From: a virus
Lineage: Duplodnaviria; Caudoviricetes
Direction: 5' to 3' (one strand)
DNA: 29,059 nucleotides
Virus record (IMG/VR): IMGVR_UViG_3300030372_001671
Location: 1 to 29,059 of that record
Shown: in pieces, positions 18,960 to 24,912 of the stretch
Numbering within the stretch: the stretch's first letter is position 1
Layout of the letters: every line of letters begins with the position of its first letter
The notes under the pieces: model-generated
What the model saw: the letters and a program-made list of their open reading frames with translations, nothing else
The model's database searches: none
What the model was told of the DNA's origin: nothing
Made by a program: the position numbers and the translations under genes

Positions 18960-19258
18960 TATAACACCTCCTCTAATAAAAATTCTATCTCATCATCTTG
19001 ATATGTTTGCCTATCAAGTTCAGTACAATCAACAGTTATATCATCTACCTCTGAACCATCTGGGTGCGTATCATTCTCTGATTTTTTTCTTCCATAATGT
19101 TCAGCTTCTTCTTTTGTATCTGCATCTACAACAAATTCTTCAGTAATTGTTTTTGTAACAAACACTCTCCAAGTCTTAGGTTTATCCCTTAGGTCTTGTT
19201 TCTCCTGCTCGTCTAGGTCTGGGTAAGTTATTGTCGTTTCTATTTTTTCTTTATACAT
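18959..19258 (-). CDS. Strongly acidic early protein
   Basis: ORF track; AAGGA SD; V.A..KEEA motif. Confidence 0.75.
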   Translation of the reverse strand: MYKEKIETTITYPDLDEQEKQDLRDKPKTWRVFVTKTITEEFVVDADTKEEAEHYGRKKSENDTHPDGSEVDDITVDCTELDRQTYQDDEIEFLLEEVL

Positions 19259-19266
19259 ATTAATTC

Positions 19267-19333
19267 CTTATAACATATTAAATTTATTTTGTCTACCTAT
19301 ATCTCTTATAAGTTTTTCCTATAGCACTTATAG
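19267..19333 (-). promoter_or_regulatory. Promoter (TAGACA-17-TATAAG, extended -10) with adjacent OxyR/LysR-like box
   Basis: Plus strand CTAT-N7-ATAA-N7-CTAT-N7-ATAG at 19297-19333, 1 nt from the -35 at 19290-19295. Confidence 0.6.
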
Positions 19334-19509
19334 GTGGAGAGTAAAGGACTTGAACCAATCTTCAGGTAGTTATAGTACCTGCCTAGACACCTTAGCTATA
19401 ACTCTAAGGGCTTGTCTTTTATTACTCTAGGAACGTGCCATGCATGTACCACTCTGGGGATATAACTCCTTGTCCATACTAAATACATACCCACATGGGA
19501 CAACTCTCC
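19333..19509 (-). ncRNA. tRNA-like structured RNA with a 121-nt insert
   Basis: 7-bp acceptor GGAGAGU/ACUCUCC followed by ACC, GG-UUCAAGU-CC T loop, 6-bp hairpin with a 7-nt loop; GC-richer than the flanks and intergenic. Confidence 0.7.
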
Positions 19510-19520
19510 ATATATAAATG

Positions 19521-19682
19521 CTATTCTCTAGCATCTTTTTGTACTGCTCTTATGAAGTGTATAAAATCCATATCTCCAAACTTTATACCTTTTCTTTCTT
19601 GGTTCATAAAATCTACCACATCTTTTGGCATTTGTTTTTTATGAGCCTTAGCAATTATTTTTATTACTTTAAAATTTATCAT
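19521..19682 (-). CDS. 53-aa hypothetical protein
   Basis: MINFKVIKIIAKAHKKQMPKDVVDFMNQERKGIKFGDMDFIHFIRAVQKDARE*; AAGGA SD. Confidence 0.65.
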   Translation of the reverse strand: MINFKVIKIIAKAHKKQMPKDVVDFMNQERKGIKFGDMDFIHFIRAVQKDARE

Positions 19683-19718
19683 TTTATTTTTTCCTTTCAT
19701 TTATATTTAATATAATTA

Positions 19719-19774
19719 TATATACTATACATCTATTATAATTTCAATCTATATCTGCTATAGGATTTTCCTAT
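19719..19774 (-). promoter_or_regulatory. Promoter (TTGAAA-17-TATATA) with OxyR/LysR-like box
   Basis: Plus strand ATAA-N7-CTAT-N7-ATAG-N7-CTAT at 19738-19774. Confidence 0.6.
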
Positions 19775-20022
19775 CATCTCATAGGTATTAACTTCATCAT
19801 TACTAAACCTGCTACACATATTAAACCACCTATCCACATCATAAAAAACCATAGCATAACTCTAAATGTTCCTTCAATGCTACTTAAAAAATATTCTTTA
19901 TCTGTTAATGCTTTTATTAAGTGGTCAAAGTATAGCAGTAAGTTATCAAAAGTATCTATCATCATAGCTGATAAAAAAAACATTACTCCCATAGTAAAAA
20001 CAATAAATCCTAGTTTAGTCAT
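19774..20022 (-). CDS. Small membrane protein with two TM helices
   Basis: Two hydrophobic stretches; AGGAG SD. Confidence 0.75.
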   Translation of the reverse strand: MTKLGFIVFTMGVMFFLSAMMIDTFDNLLLYFDHLIKALTDKEYFLSSIEGTFRVMLWFFMMWIGGLICVAGLVMMKLIPMR

Positions 20023-20024
20023 AG

Positions 20025-20177
20025 TTATATTCTCCTAAAGTTAAAATATCCAAGTAATCTTAATGTGTTTCTTGATGGCAATCTTCTACCACTACATAAC
20101 CCTGCAAAGCTTTTAGTTATATTTCTTGTACCATATTCTTTATGGTCTGCGTATAAACATTTATCTTTTTTATTCAT
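20025..20177 (-). CDS. 50-aa basic hypothetical protein
   Basis: MNKKDKCLYADHKEYGTRNITKSFAGLCSGRRLPSRNTLRLLGYFNFRRI*; GGAG SD. Confidence 0.6.
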   Translation of the reverse strand: MNKKDKCLYADHKEYGTRNITKSFAGLCSGRRLPSRNTLRLLGYFNFRRI

Positions 20178-20319
20178 AGTTATATTCTCCCTCTCTATCT
20201 AAATGTGATTCTCTTAATTGCTCAACTATTTCTAAAGCATTAGAAAGTTCTCCAATATTACCATTGATTGCCTCTGATATAGCAAAATGTAACCATTCTA
20301 TTTTATTATATTCATTCAT
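20170..20319 (-). CDS. 49-aa acidic hypothetical protein
   Basis: MNEYNKIEWLHFAISEAINGNIGELSNALEIVEQLRE..*; AAGGAG SD. Confidence 0.65.
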   Translation of the reverse strand: MNEYNKIEWLHFAISEAINGNIGELSNALEIVEQLRESHLDREGEYNYE

Positions 20320-20388
20320 ATTTTTATTCTCCTTGTATTGTATATGGTGCTATTAAAAATTAATTCAATAGCACCAAGTTAATTTAAT

Positions 20389-20709
20389 TTAAAATTGTAG
20401 TATTTTATTTCTTAATAAACTTATATGCGTTTCTTTTGGCTTAATAGTTTTACTTTTTCTATGTTGGTTTATCTGTAAATTAGAATGGTCTGCTCTAATC
20501 TCTGTACCTTGCAAATCTATTATGGCATTGTCTACTAAATCAACTTTAGTATTAGGATAAACAACTAAATTATTTATTTCTATTCTTAATTGTTTTTCTT
20601 TTGTCTCTGATACTTCAATATATTTTTTATTTCCTATTGTTACAATAGGATTAGCTTTATATTTTGATTTTCTTATTCTGATAATATGTGACATATATTT
20701 AAACTCCAT
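20389..20709 (-). CDS. Hypothetical basic early protein
   Basis: ORF track; the true start may be the second Met (MSHII) after GGAG. Confidence 0.7.
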   Translation of the reverse strand: MEFKYMSHIIRIRKSKYKANPIVTIGNKKYIEVSETKEKQLRIEINNLVVYPNTKVDLVDNAIIDLQGTEIRADHSNLQINQHRKSKTIKPKETHISLLRNKILQF

Positions 20710-21029
20710 TTAATAATTAATAAAAACTTAATATACATATTACAGCATATTTTTTTATTGTCAATAGCATAATAAAAATAATTTTTTTATGTTGTATTTA
20801 TATCACACTATTAGATGTCAATCTATAATGCTTATTAGTTTTTCCTATGACCTGTTTAAATGCATCAGTTTATTTTTTTATGTATCTTACTATCTATTTT
20901 ATATTTATATGTACTCTATGGCTACCATATGGCTATATAAGTTTTTCTTATAATGCTTATTAGTTTTTTCTATAGTGATAAATATATCACACCTGTTGCA
21001 TAAATGTCACAGTCAAAAGTTTGACACAT

Positions 21030-21062
21030 AAAAAAAGAGAGTGCCATTATTTTGACACTCTC
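21030..21062 (-). terminator. Rho-independent terminator
   Basis: GAGAGUGUCA-aaauaa-UGGCACUCUC-U7; the G-U wobble works only on the minus strand. Confidence 0.8.
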
Positions 21063-21103
21063 AATCAGGAGTTTACTATAAAATGAAAAAATAATAATAT
21101 AAA

Positions 21104-21163
21104 ATATAAATATCTTGATAAGTGTTTTATATTATATAAATATCTTTATAAGTATTTTATATT
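21104..21163. repeat. Two tandem 30-bp copies with 2 mismatches
   Basis: atataaatatcttgataagtgttttatatt / atataaatatctttataagtattttatatt. Confidence 0.8.
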
Positions 21164-21181
21164 TATATATTATTAATATAC

Positions 21182-21236
21182 ATTATAGCAACATATATTA
21201 TTATTACAACCTATAAATATTATTAGTTTTTCCTAT
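21182..21236 (-). promoter_or_regulatory. Promoter (TTGTAA-16-TATAAT, extended -10) with OxyR/LysR-like box
   Basis: Plus strand ATTA-N7-CTAT-N7-ATTA-N7-CTAT at 21200-21236. Confidence 0.65.
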
Positions 21237-21352
21237 AGTTTATTTTAAAGCTTACTGATTAACTTAATTTTATTTTATGTTAGATAGTACCATAATTTTA
21301 TTTAATGGCACTCTATGAGCTTTTAAAAGCTTTTAAATTGTATAGTAGATAT

Positions 21353-21390
21353 AAAAAAACCTAGCATTAAATTAATAATACTAGGTTTTT
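21353..21390 (-). terminator. Terminator after the GP88-like gene, possibly bidirectional
   Basis: AAAAACCTAG...CTAGGTTTTT hairpin with A/T runs on both sides. Confidence 0.7.
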
Positions 21391-21412
21391 AGTAGAAGTT
21401 TATGAAAGTTAA

Positions 21413-22354
21413 TTAATTAACTAACATAAAATTATTATCTTTAGAACTAGGTAAAAAACCTTTAGCTTTTAAATATAATGTACTATTGTTAGGTTTTAAG
21501 AAAGTTAAATCGTTATCATCACCATTAACCATATTACTATATAAAAAACCTTGTTTTACATATTTAGCAATAACTTTTTCATGTATCACTACAGCAATAC
21601 GCATTTTTTTTGCTAATGCAATATTAACATATTTTTTATATTTAATTTCATTGCTATAGGAAAAAGTTAAATCAATAAATCCTTGTGTATTTCTTAAAGG
21701 TTTTTTGGTATAGTCATAATATTTAATATCATGTTGTATAGTATAATATTTTATATAATTAAATATATTAGGGTCTTTTTCATATTCAATATCACTAGTC
21801 CCATTTAATCTGATACAAGGTTTTAAATTCTTTTTCTTAGCTATTCTTAAAAGTTTTTCAGTATCTTTTTTTAATAGTTTTAAATATTCATTAGGATATT
21901 GTATTTTAAATAATGCTTTTACTAATCTAAATATATTTATATTTTGAAATACAATAGCGTTGCCAGTATGTACAATACAGGTTCTAAAACAATTAGCAAT
22001 TTTGGCATGACTACAAAATTGTTTTAAATTATATAAATATTGTATACCAGTAATATAACCATTTTTAGAGTTTTTACTTGTCTTTAAATCTTTTTCAATA
22101 GATAAAATAGAATTAGGGAATTTACAGAAAGCATTATATATTTTTTTATCTGTAAATATTTTATGTTTAATTCGTGTTGCTATTTCTTTTGCTGTCTCTT
22201 TTTTACTATCAAATAATAAATTCTCTAAATTATCTAGATTATATATTATTTTATTAGGATTAAAAGTATTATTAATATTAATTTTATTATCAATACTAAT
22301 ATTTTTTAATTGTTTTTTATCTTTTAATAATTGATATAATTCTTTATTTTTCAT
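21413..22354 (-). CDS. GP88-like (mycobacteriophage gene product 88 family) putative Fe-S protein
   Basis: CX7CX3C (CSHAKIANCFRTC), IRLNGTSDI, YYDYTK, LTFSYS, NGDDNDLTF, LKAKG. Confidence 0.75.
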   Translation of the reverse strand: MKNKELYQLLKDKKQLKNISIDNKININNTFNPNKIIYNLDNLENLLFDSKKETAKEIATRIKHKIFTDKKIYNAFCKFPNSILSIEKDLKTSKNSKNGYITGIQYLYNLKQFCSHAKIANCFRTCIVHTGNAIVFQNINIFRLVKALFKIQYPNEYLKLLKKDTEKLLRIAKKKNLKPCIRLNGTSDIEYEKDPNIFNYIKYYTIQHDIKYYDYTKKPLRNTQGFIDLTFSYSNEIKYKKYVNIALAKKMRIAVVIHEKVIAKYVKQGFLYSNMVNGDDNDLTFLKPNNSTLYLKAKGFLPSSKDNNFMLVN

Positions 22355-22437
22355 TTTATATACTCCTATTTATTTAAATTAATTATATATTATAATAGCT
22401 ATCAATTAAAAAATCAATAGCTATTATATATTTTTTA

Positions 22438-22650
22438 TTAGTCTTTATTTTTATATCTCTCTTTTAATTTATTGACACTTATCATATTCTCACAAATAAA
22501 AACTATTTCTTTAGCGTGTCTTAAAATATAATCAATATCTATATTACAGTCTATTATGTTTTCTTTTCTTTCAATAGAATCTTTTTTCAATAATTCTAAT
22601 GCATAAATACATTGCATTAATTGTTCATTTATTTTTTTTCTAACTTTCAT
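22438..22650 (-). CDS. Hypothetical early protein
   Basis: ORF track; AAGGA SD. Confidence 0.7.
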   Translation of the reverse strand: MKVRKKINEQLMQCIYALELLKKDSIERKENIIDCNIDIDYILRHAKEIVFICENMISVNKLKERYKNKD

Positions 22651-22675
22651 TTTATTTAATCCTTTGTTAAATTAA

Positions 22676-22840
22676 TTATATATTGTTAATATCATTTATT
22701 GTAATATTGTCAATATCTTTTTTATCTTTTATTTTATTAATGTTATCATTAATAATATTATTATCATCTATTGTAAAGTCTATATCAATAATATTATTAT
22801 CTTTATTAATAAAAATTTTGTTTTTTTCTTTTATATTCAT
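22676..22840 (-). CDS. 54-aa I/N/D/K-rich peptide, first gene of the early arm
   Basis: MNIKEKNKIFINKDNNIIDIDFTIDDNNIINDNINKIKDKKDIDNITINDINNI*; same 29-nt leader as the next gene. Confidence 0.55.
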   Translation of the reverse strand: MNIKEKNKIFINKDNNIIDIDFTIDDNNIINDNINKIKDKKDIDNITINDINNI

Positions 22841-23246
22841 TTTATTTAATCCTTTGTTAAATTAATAATAATACAATTAATATATATATATTTTAACTTG
22901 TCAATAACTATTTATAATTATTTTTTATACTGTTGTATAATTACAACAATTTATTTATTATTATATAGTACAAATAGAAAGCTATATAAAACAAGTATTT
23001 AGTATTTAATAATATTATAAATAGAAATAACTGGCATTATTATTTTATAATCTATAATTATTTACTTGACATTATAAATGTTCTTGTTTTGTTCTATTAA
23101 GGTATCTTTTTATGGCAGAAAAAACTTGACTGTGACAAAAATGCAACACCCTAGCAAAAAAAAATAGTCTGTGTGTTATATATATATACCCCACCCCCAT
23201 ATATGCACCAAAAACCTAGGCTTTATAATAAAAATAAAAATAATAC

Positions 23247-23275
23247 TTGACACAAGTGGGGGAGTAGTGTATAAT
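23247..23275 (+). promoter_or_regulatory. Consensus sigma70 promoter for the packaging/structural arm
   Basis: TTGACA-17 nt-TATAAT. Confidence 0.85.
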
Positions 23276-23367
23276 TATATATAATATATAAAGATATTAG
23301 AAACATTTAGTACATTGTTTTTCTTTTATTGTTTTTCTTATAAGAAATATAATCAAATACAATTAAT

Positions 23368-24912
23368 ATGAATGAGACTATAGAGACTATAGAGACTATC
23401 TCTCCCTTAATTACCCTAGATAGCTTGTTATCACAAAAGGTTGAACAGGATTCTAATCTAGATTTTATTACATTTGTTAGAAAAGTAGCTCCAACACTTG
23501 TTTCTGATTGGAAGATGGGTAAACATATAGAAAAAATAAGTGAAAAACTACAGCAACTAGAGTCTGGAGAGATAAAAAGGCTCATGGTATTCCTACCACC
23601 ACGTTCTTCTAAGAGTGTTATCTGTTCTAAACTGTTTCCTGCCTGGTATATTGGTAGAAATCCAGAACATGAGATACTAACTATCTCTCATAGTGACCAA
23701 TTAAGCTCTGATTTTGGTAGAAGTGTTAGAGATATTGTTAATACAGAAGACTTTCAAAACATATTTAGAGGTGTTTCTCTAAGAAGTGACGTTAGAGCTG
23801 CAGGTAAATGGAAGACAAACCACAATGGCACGTATTATGCTGCAGGTGTTAGAAGTCAAATAGCAGGAAGAGGAGCTCACATAGCAATATTAGATGATGT
23901 GATGTCTGAAGAGGACTCTTTCTCTGAAGCAGGTAGAAGATATGTTAAAGAATGGTACCCATCAGGACTACGAACACGTATTATGCCTAATGGTTCTATC
24001 TTAATAATAAATACTAGGTACCATTATGATGATTTATGTGGGTGGCTATTAAAACAACAAGAGAATGTGGGTGATTATGCTGTTACTCCTTGGGAAGTAG
24101 TACGTATTCCTGCATGGTTAGATGAAGAATCTGCTGAGTTACTAGATTTACCAGTAGGTAGTAGTTATTTTCCTGAATGGAAACCTGATGATGTTTTAAA
24201 AATAGATGAAGCAGAGATAAAAGCTTCTAATGGTGCACGATATTGGAACGCATTATATATGCAGGACCCAACACCTGATGAAGGTGGTATCATTAAAAAG
24301 AAATGGATACAATATTGGGATGATGAAGAGCCACCACCTTGTGAGTTTATAATACAAACTTATGATACTGCTTTTTCTACATCAAGAACTGCAGACTTTA
24401 GTGTAATACAAACATGGGGTATCTTTCATACCTATGAAGAAAGTGAAGATGGTTATGAACAATATATATCACAACTAATATTATTAGGAAATATAAAAGG
24501 TAGATTTGAATATCCAGAGTTAAGAAGAATAGCACAACAATTATATGATGAACATAGACCTGATGTTTGTATGATAGAAAAGAAAGCATCTGGTCAATCA
24601 CTTATACAAGATATGAGAAGAGCAGGACTACCTGTTTTAGAATATCTACCAGATAGAGACAAAGTATCTAGAGTATATTCTGCTACTCCTATGATGGAAG
24701 CAGGTAGAGTATGGATACCTAGTAATAGAAAATGGTCAGAAGATTTATTAGAAGAACTATTACGTTTTCCAAATGCTGCTCATGATGACCAAGTAGATGC
24801 AATGACAATGGCAATACACTATATGAAAGAGTCATGGCACCTTGAGCATCCTGAAGACCCAGAGTGGGATGACCCACCTGCAAAAAAAAGAGTTGCATAT
24901 TGGAGAACTTAA
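23368..24912 (+). CDS. terL: Terminase large subunit
   Basis: Walker A LPPRSSKS, GRGAHIAILDD (Walker B), INTRYH, LYMQDP, nuclease YDTA, IEKKASG, HDDQVDA. Confidence 0.96.
   Translation: MNETIETIETISPLITLDSLLSQKVEQDSNLDFITFVRKVAPTLVSDWKMGKHIEKISEKLQQLESGEIKRLMVFLPPRSSKSVICSKLFPAWYIGRNPEHEILTISHSDQLSSDFGRSVRDIVNTEDFQNIFRGVSLRSDVRAAGKWKTNHNGTYYAAGVRSQIAGRGAHIAILDDVMSEEDSFSEAGRRYVKEWYPSGLRTRIMPNGSILIINTRYHYDDLCGWLLKQQENVGDYAVTPWEVVRIPAWLDEESAELLDLPVGSSYFPEWKPDDVLKIDEAEIKASNGARYWNALYMQDPTPDEGGIIKKKWIQYWDDEEPPPCEFIIQTYDTAFSTSRTADFSVIQTWGIFHTYEESEDGYEQYISQLILLGNIKGRFEYPELRRIAQQLYDEHRPDVCMIEKKASGQSLIQDMRRAGLPVLEYLPDRDKVSRVYSATPMMEAGRVWIPSNRKWSEDLLEELLRFPNAAHDDQVDAMTMAIHYMKESWHLEHPEDPEWDDPPAKKRVAYWRT

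Follow-up and report, generated by a model that had tools for sequence, protein, structure and literature searches.

Two kinds of phage RNA form the background to the one described here. tRNA-Tyr is targeted by the bacterial defence retron-Eco7/PtuAB, and phage-encoded tRNA-Tyr counters it (PMC11555353). ROOL and GOLLD, found near phage tRNA islands, contain kissing loops that were first read as tertiary contacts from covariation and proved to be bridges between chains (PMC12286853). Some of these ornate phage-associated RNAs are shorter than 200 nucleotides (nt) and self-assembling (PMC12286853; bioRxiv 10.64898/2026.07.01.735769). Here, we describe a tRNA-like RNA gene of about 175 nt, located at 19509-19335 on the minus strand of a 29,059-nt stretch of viral DNA (IMG/VR record IMGVR_UViG_3300030372_001671, positions 1 to 29,059; Duplodnaviria, Caudoviricetes), which is called the window throughout. 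We show that covariation among homologues supports a fold of five arms and a contact of 7 base pairs (bp) between an anticodon-like loop and a codon-like loop in another arm. The family comprises 44 loci in marine viral and metagenome contigs and is new to Rfam.

An initial annotation, made from the letters of the window, had proposed such an RNA, and the acceptor-like stem, T loop, anticodon-like hairpin and stems that it listed on the minus strand are all present where it placed them. Our main alignment contains 42 copies, 33 of them distinct, and the covariation figures refer to these 33. The elements of the window copy are:

19513..19523, minus strand: P0, 5' strand (leader) UAGCAUUUAUA, pairing with 19332-19322
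19503..19509, minus strand: P1, acceptor-like stem, 5' strand GGAGAGU, paired in 33/33 distinct sequences
19436..19502, minus strand: P2, long variable arm, closing stem 19502-19499 with 19439-19436
19469-19458, minus strand: tip hairpin of P2, GGA-GUUAUA-UCC, whose stem covaries
19432..19435, minus strand: P2/P3 junction CGUU, invariant in the main alignment
19382..19431, minus strand: P3 (outer stem, internal loop and inner hairpin), with covariation
19431-19426 / 19387-19382, minus strand: P3a, outer stem CCUAGA/UCUAGG, with covariation
19425-19410, minus strand: A-rich internal loop of P3, GUAAUAAAAGACAAGC, conserved in sequence
19409-19404 / 19395-19390, minus strand: P3b, inner hairpin CCUUAG/CUAAGG, with covariation
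19396..19403, minus strand: L3b, codon-like loop AGUUAUAG, of which 19402-19396 pair with the anticodon-like loop
19363..19381, minus strand: P4, anticodon-like arm CAGGUA-CUAUAAC-UACCUG, loop 19375-19369
19343..19359, minus strand: P5, T-arm-like hairpin AUUGG-UUCAAGU-CCUUU, loop UUCAAGU 19354-19348
19335..19342, minus strand: P1, 3' strand ACUCUCC (19342-19336), and discriminator A (19335), invariant in the alignment
19322..19332, minus strand: P0, 3' strand (trailer) UAUAAGUGCUA, pairing with the leader

Across the alignment 93.3% of cells form standard pairs and both sides change in 25 of the 53 pairs. The covariation score is 0.310 against 0.142 upon shuffling (0/500 shuffles reach it) and at most 0.081 when the partners are slid. 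The case rests on the homologues, since the minimum free energy of the window sequence alone is unremarkable (-48.9 kcal/mol, z = -1.25). G-U pairs are frequent (pair 9-106 is UG in 19 sequences and pair 28-93 is GU in 27), which points to the minus strand acting as RNA and not to a DNA palindrome.

The 7 bp of P1 are paired in 100% of cells. Its A3-U70 pair is A-U in 29 sequences and G-C in four, so that the G3-U70 pair of transfer-messenger RNA (tmRNA) is lacking, as had been noticed from the window; one copy (L170) reads GGAGGGU/ACCCUCC. Directly after P1 comes the 4-bp closing stem of P2, positions 8-11 with 71-74, which is 100% paired in 33/33 sequences, takes the forms UGUC/GGCA, AGUC/GGCU and GUCU/AGGC, and has three of four pairs changing on both sides. 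Position 8 is thus paired and there is no free U8. The family does not support the UGUCC/GGACA helix of the initial annotation, whose other stems in the place of the D arm (GGA-GUUAUA-UCC, CCUAGA/UCUAGG and CCUUAG-AGUUAUAG-CUAAGG) hold. All seven pairs of the P2 tip stem change on both sides, and the tip loop has the consensus G-U-N-A-U-A. In four copies (L132, L135, L139 and L143) insertions of about 16-25 nt, specific to their lineages and with one additional hairpin among them, enlarge P2, which seems therefore to be a tolerant, expandable arm.

P3a is 100% paired, with two pairs changing on both sides (CUUGGA/UCCAAG, CUUAGA/UCUAAG). P3b and the stem of P4 are each 99.5% paired, with both sides changing in four of six pairs and in two pairs, respectively. 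P5 is the weakest element: 68.5% of its cells are paired, U-U predominates at the two central positions of the stem, AAAGG/CCUUU occurs in some copies, and only three of the five pairs are standard in the window. Its loop occurs as UUCGAAU, UUCAAGU, UGCGAAU, GGCAGAG, GGCAGAA and UUGAAGU. Three unpaired stretches are nearly invariant, namely CGUU between P2 and P3 (identical in 33/33 distinct sequences; CGUC in L181), 13 nt of the A-rich internal loop of P3, and AAG before P5. In the 21 metagenome loci, which were found with a pattern that left the A-rich loop unconstrained, this loop does not change. A search of the window for antisense targets of this loop returned nine matches with at most two mismatches, against 2.6 expected; one is the RNA gene itself and none on the coding strand is convincing.

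The contact between the two loops is our main finding. The P4 loop reads Y-U-N-U-A-A-C, where N is A, C or G, and its seven bases pair with the P3b loop in 33/33 distinct sequences. The partners occur in the following combinations (anticodon-like loop, then codon-like loop):

CUAUAAC with GUUAUAG
CUCUAAC with GUUAGAG
CUGUAAC with GUUACAG
UUAUAAC with GUUAUAA

In addition, GUUAUGG pairs with CUAUAAC through a wobble, which again speaks for pairing in RNA and not for a DNA palindrome. Pair 145-170 is UA in 24 sequences, CG in five and GC in four; pair 147-168 is GC in 29 and AU in four; pair 146-169 is AU in 29 and GU in four. In tRNA numbering there are three pair types at position 34, two at position 32 and a wobble at position 33, each together with its partner. 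The "anticodon" is accordingly AUA, CUA or GUA, and in every case the partner loop has the complementary UAU, UAG or UAC; the GUA form is found on two different P2 backbones. Since position 34 varies only together with its partner in L3b, selection acts on the contact and not on a codon. All of the variation in the contact stems from loci found independently of the loops, and the contact is kept in two loci found without any RNA pattern; the metagenome loci, selected by their loops, add nothing to this test. Covariation would fit a contact within one molecule as well as one between copies. The kissing loop predicted on the anticodon-like loop is thereby confirmed, with compensatory changes. 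The alternative contact predicted through GUUAUA did not survive, as it depends on one U of the window at a position where most copies have G (the tip loop is mainly GUGAUA, with GUAAUA in some copies and GUUAUA in few).

The first copies in other viral contigs were found with exact and degenerate DNA patterns drawn from the RNA, and a covariance model (R1) was built from five copies. Scanning metagenomes with a pattern made of the two loops only gave 21 loci, and the model matched 21/21 at 104-195 bits. Scanning viral contigs with a pattern free of both loops gave 22 loci, 17 of them new, and the model matched 17/17 at 133-164 bits. Two further copies turned up only through the neighbouring open reading frame (ORF). 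In cellular genomes (one-per-species bacterial and archaeal contigs, loop-free pattern) the pattern occurred in two places, both by chance, one with a partial match to the model of 11.6 bits and the other with none. Among cultured phage records there was no match to the locus (blastn) or to a query of 15 kilobases (kb) (megablast).

No family of Rfam 15 matches the window at gathering score, nor the whole of a complete phage genome that carries another copy (G001). When 19100-19750 was searched against Rfam by E-value, the sole match was a weak one to the DUF2815 RNA motif downstream of the RNA (19256-19299, minus strand; 22.9 bits for a gathering score of 41.2, E = 0.078). It sits just upstream of an ORF of 99 amino acids (aa) at 19258-18959 and may be a leader or promoter-like motif shared by these phages. 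In the literature, we found no description of an RNA combining tRNA derivation, two arms in place of the D arm and an anticodon clamped by a loop of the same family, although it could be among the 8,495 unnamed candidates of PMC10690425. Contigs carrying the RNA are absent from supplementary files 3 and 4 of that study, and its candidate DNAVirus_1423, which overlaps tRNA-Tyr, is ruled out, being a 66-nt soil motif.

The ends of the RNA are paired beyond the acceptor-like stem. In the window the leader 19523-19513 pairs with the trailer 19332-19322 beyond a 2x2 internal loop, and A73 has a possible partner in the U at position -1. Other copies have a perfect leader-trailer extension of 11-13 bp, with compensatory changes of bases and of length. 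We folded leader and trailer jointly with a fixed clamp and compared each pair with 100 shuffles: for 23 of the 28 distinct flank pairs, 0/100 shuffles were as stable. The pairing is weaker in the copies of a second phage type (see below). With the -1/73 pair and the 11-13 bp of P0, the acceptor-like stem becomes the inner part of a precursor closing helix of about 20 bp. The core first delimited at 19509-19335 therefore stands, while the full element is longer owing to the P0 leader and trailer. CCA is not encoded in most copies; the phage tRNA-Tyr that adjoins some of them does encode it. A73 is followed by A-C-C-U in the window and by UGU, CUU, UCU, CGC, UUA or CUA in other copies, so that the A-C-C-U tail pointed out earlier is a peculiarity of the window copy. 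The idea that the RNA uses tRNA ends for maturation is doubtful in the form in which it was put, given the lack of encoded CCA, the paired -1/A73 and the long leader-trailer helix.

The first three bases of the P0 leader strand are the stop codon of an ORF of 59 aa. A hairpin, AUGCUA-GAGAA-UAGCAU, spans the end of this ORF (19518-19534, minus strand). The P0 leader strand begins with the 3' arm of this hairpin, so that two mutually exclusive pairings compete, and all three segments covary between lineages (AUGCUA/UAGCAU/GUGCUA versus AGGCUA/UAGCCU/GGGCUA). Translation of the ORF might influence the folding of the RNA.

The neighbourhood of the RNA includes the following features:

19521..19700 of the window, minus strand: upstream 59-aa ORF without a known family; within this phage group its linkage to the RNA is tight
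L007:1327-1412, L103:302-387, L113:302-387 and L121:660-745: class II tRNA-Tyr(GUA) genes with encoded CCA
L127:7506-7672 (phage genome G001) and L130 (G002): the RNA again, its 3' two-thirds nearly identical

In 31 of 42 RNA loci the 59-aa ORF is the immediate upstream neighbour; conversely, it has homologues in 25 viral loci, and the RNA is just downstream in 21 of them. It has no match in Pfam or PHROG. At one locus (L173:690-900) there is a natural allele without the RNA, in which ORF and hairpin are kept and the RNA and trailer strand are precisely absent, which marks out RNA and trailer as the unit of gain or loss. In three other loci (L103, L113 and L121) the RNA lies 16 nt behind a genuine 86-nt tRNA-Tyr(GUA), and an RNA-less relative (L007) has a tRNA-Tyr(GUA) at the corresponding locus. 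The RNA is always intergenic and on the coding strand. In consensus scans, neither a promoter nor a terminator was called next to the RNA on the strand that encodes it, so that the window copy is probably part of a polycistronic transcript, right after the 59-aa ORF.

As a fragment, the window covers about half of a marine phage genome. Its genes include those for a T7-type primase-helicase, a family A polymerase, endonuclease VII, ribonucleotide reductase, terminase and portal, and its nearest cultured relatives are Pelagibacter phages (46% identity in the polymerase). Among its 80 closest relatives by primase, the RNA is carried by two of the approximately 14 loci with enough upstream DNA. 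The second phage type is represented by G001 and G002, which are complete according to CheckV, 54-55 kb long and of different architecture, with a polymerase nearest to that of Rhizobium phages. There the RNA is flanked by a PD-(D/E)XK nuclease on one side and a VRR-NUC/SNF2 pair on the other, and in G001 12 nt separate its end from the ribosome-binding site (AGGAG) of the gene that follows, VRR-NUC. No integrase was found near the RNA. Judging from these sequences, the RNA is an accessory gene exchanged between unrelated phage types, and its occurrence in abundant pelagiphage-related marine phages together with this exchange suggests a portable benefit.

Some further observations concern these genomes. 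About 18 nt upstream of the G001 copy there is, by eye only, a TTGACA-17 nt-TATATA arrangement. ARAGORN calls a 93-nt tRNA-Ile(aat) at L127:8639-8731 (minus strand), opposite the SNF2 helicase ORF, which is probably a false positive. In the window, G+C falls to 0.22-0.23 within 20000-24000, where leftward and rightward gene blocks diverge and the terminase starts (23368, plus strand); a regulatory region or an origin may lie here.

From the anticodon-like stem to the discriminator, the RNA has a 5-bp stem, a 7-nt loop, a 4-nt variable loop, a T arm of 5+7+5, a 7-bp stem and A73, a spacing equal to that of positions 27-73 in the standard tRNA plan. The acceptor stem is fully paired and A73 is invariant in the alignment. 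In the place of a D arm (a 4-bp stem with a GG loop) there are about 121 nt of P2 and P3. This spacing, and the tRNA-Tyr(ata) that ARAGORN calls in part of the RNA in the G001 and G002 copies, suggest that the gene derives from a tRNA. Most likely this was a tRNA-Tyr, to judge from the shape of the anticodon-like loop, from A73 and G1-C72, and from the tRNA-Tyr genes beside some copies.

As to function, we place about half of our confidence in the reading that it acts in trans as a non-decoding look-alike of a tRNA, probably derived from tRNA-Tyr, whose anticodon loop is locked by the codon-like loop. Under this proposal, the RNA would be transcribed within a polycistronic early message and released through the P0 and P1 helix of about 20 bp, a substrate of the RNase III type, after which RNase P and exonucleases might trim it. 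Being compact and locked, it would then expose a surface resembling the acceptor and T arm of a tRNA, to which a tRNA-binding factor of the host could attach. Our leading guess for this target is a protein of defence or processing that is directed at tRNA-Tyr, by analogy with the phage tRNAs that counter defence. The narrower idea of a decoy for anticodon nucleases, put forward in the initial annotation, has become less likely, as the loop is wholly paired in every sequence and position 34 drifts with its partner.

Several points weigh against a tRNA look-alike acting in trans. We know of no tRNA-targeting defence in the presumed hosts, and the decoy idea is a guess by analogy. The T loop is non-canonical in about five of the 33 sequences (GGCAGAG, GGCAGAA, UUGAAGU) and the T stem is weak, so that strict mimicry of the tRNA elbow is not conserved. 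As CCA is not encoded, -1 and 73 are paired and the closing helix is long, the acceptor-like stem may at no stage be exposed as a free end of the tRNA kind. The spacing in G001 fits a cis-acting leader as well. Contigs from RNA libraries contain related variants of the RNA region in four runs, one of which joins the RNA 5' end to a tRNA-Tyr 3' end; they come without end or strand information, may result from DNA carry-over, and are not counted as expression.

A tentative alternative, which we find clearly less convincing than a look-alike acting in trans, is that the RNA assembles with itself: the loops would pair between copies to form a closed head-to-tail dimer or a larger ring, and the tRNA-like part would be a mark of ancestry or a handle. 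Covariation is blind to the difference between pairing within and between molecules. Geometrical reasoning, without computation, puts the 7-bp loop helix in line with both stems at about 19 bp. As these stems are tied by the 6-bp P3a through linkers of 0 and 2 nt, the arrangement would be strained in a monomer and relaxed in a reciprocal dimer. Furthermore, the invariant 13-nt A-rich loop could form A-minor bridges. Yet, the 16-nt internal loop could provide the sharp bend required for an intramolecular contact, and intramolecular kissing loops between adjacent arms are common in riboswitch junctions. ROOL and GOLLD provide a direct precedent for "tertiary" kissing loops that are intermolecular (PMC12286853), and defined oligomers are possible for RNAs below 200 nt (bioRxiv 10.64898/2026.07.01.735769).

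We think it unlikely that the RNA is a cis-acting element without function in trans, i.e. a riboswitch-like or protein-binding leader, or a site for processing by RNase III or RNase P and for insulation. Its constant position between genes on the coding strand, the lack of called promoters and terminators, and the 12 nt that separate it from the AGGAG of the next gene in G001 would all suit such a role. Moreover, the CUCUCC of the P1 3' strand is complementary in sequence to ribosome-binding sites of the GGAG type, the leader-trailer helix resembles a processing site, and the invariant unpaired bases of the junction resemble a ligand pocket. But at least four different genes follow the RNA, at distances from 12 to more than 70 nt, so that it is not accompanied by any one regulated gene. 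What does accompany it is its own pair of P0 arms, whether the cassette follows an ORF, a tRNA or a promoter-like stretch, and about 175 nt of covarying arms with a kissing loop are needless for a plain processing site. More doubtful still is a specific combination of the look-alike and self-assembly proposals, in which a clamp between copies would give a closed dimer or ring of tRNA-shaped protomers that displays acceptor/T-arm surfaces and soaks up a tRNA-Tyr-directed defence or a tRNA-processing factor in marine alphaproteobacteria.

A working decoding tRNA, either a tRNA-Tyr with a large insert (an amber suppressor in the copies with CUA) or an intron-holding tRNA gene, is very improbable. 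In its favour, ARAGORN calls a 74-nt tRNA-Tyr(ata) in four other copies, among them those of G001 and G002, the anticodon-like loop has the canonical Y-U-NNN-A-C shape with GUA (Tyr) and CUA (amber) variants, and in the window a short AGAGUU repeat lies on both sides of the putative insert. Yet, the ARAGORN parse depends on an alternative acceptor with two mismatches, and its D stem is incompatible with the covarying P2 closing stem, P3a and P3b. We thus rejected the embedded 74-nt tRNA, as its D stem fails in just those copies in which P3a covaries, and also an excisable insert between the AGAGUU repeats, since the would-be D stem left after excision is likewise disrupted and is not conserved. 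In the window ARAGORN finds no tRNA and no tmRNA gene, the Rfam tRNA model (RF00005) has no match up to E = 10 in 19100-19750, and no intron family matches. A freely available anticodon constrained by codons is likewise missing, the loop being fully paired and position 34 following its partner. With no D arm, a masked and variable anticodon and no encoded CCA, the RNA is not a decoding tRNA.

It is not a tmRNA either: pair 3-70 is A-U (29) or G-C (4) and both ARAGORN and Rfam are negative. A tmRNA-like frame ending at UAAUAA in the A-rich loop was discarded, as it shows non-synonymous changes (GCAUGGCAC, GCGUGGCUC, GCAUAGGCC) and no conserved start, and a frame that stops at UAG runs on without a stop in those variants of the alignment that have UGG. 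YrlA and other bacterial Y RNAs, manA, GOLLD, ROOL and the other Rfam models give no match at gathering score. The checks against Rfam and with ARAGORN that the initial annotation called for thus reveal no known family and no tRNA or tmRNA in the window, and the 44 loci and their covariation establish a real, conserved, structured tRNA-like RNA. Finally, we give hardly any credence to a decayed tRNA, a chance fold or a DNA element (attP remnant or protein-binding inverted repeat), for although the fold energy is ordinary (z = -1.25), the T stem weak and the two loops an inverted repeat in DNA, the compensatory changes in 25/53 pairs and the covarying loop contact contradict decay, G-U wobbles in helices and contact break the palindrome, unpaired stretches do not vary, G+C is 43% in the RNA against about 30% in the genome, no integrase is nearby, and the two pattern matches in cellular genomes are due to chance.

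At about 175 nt the RNA is small enough for chemical probing, mutational rescue and cryo-EM, which makes it a tractable case to study how tRNA genes become new structured RNAs and what tRNA-shaped RNAs other than tRNAs do in infection. Compared with the class II tRNA-Tyr of bacteria and phages, it shares the 7-bp acceptor starting at G1-C72, the discriminator A, a T arm of 5+7+5 that stacks on the acceptor, and the sequence C-U-N-U-A-A-C in the anticodon loop, where some copies have G as N and so contain the Tyr anticodon GUA. It differs by the lack of D arm, long variable arm and encoded CCA, by its extra arms of about 67 and 50 nt, by an anticodon loop that is fully paired and variable at position 34, and by its paired leader and trailer. 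The combination of an acceptor/T-arm module with a larger RNA, and non-decoding mimicry, are also found in YrlA, in the tRNA-like domain of tmRNA and in viral tRNA-like structures, including tyrosine-accepting ones. However, an anticodon arm, present but masked in this RNA, is missing from YrlA and tmRNA; tmRNA has a G3-U70 pair and a tag reading frame, whereas this RNA has neither; and the tRNA-like structures of plant viruses stand at the 3' end of an RNA genome and have a CCA end, unlike it.

Phage T4 makes two small stable RNAs, species 1 and 2, beside its tRNA genes, said to have paired ends like those of tRNAs; they are not known to have a function. Pairing between an anticodon loop and a codon-like specifier occurs in T-boxes, and seven-base loops pair fully between RNA I and RNA II of ColE1. 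The analogy is one of mechanism only, since here both partners belong to the same RNA species and there is neither a T-box sequence nor an antisense target.

With ROOL, GOLLD and manA, the RNA has in common that it is borne by phages, lies near tRNA genes, has kissing loops supported by covariation and conserved A-rich unpaired stretches, and has no known protein partner (PMC12286853). It is set apart from them by the absence of an Rfam match, by its tRNA-derived module, and by a size much smaller than that of ROOL and GOLLD. The family stands between the phage tRNAs that counter host defence (PMC11555353) and the self-assembling RNAs found near phage tRNA genes.

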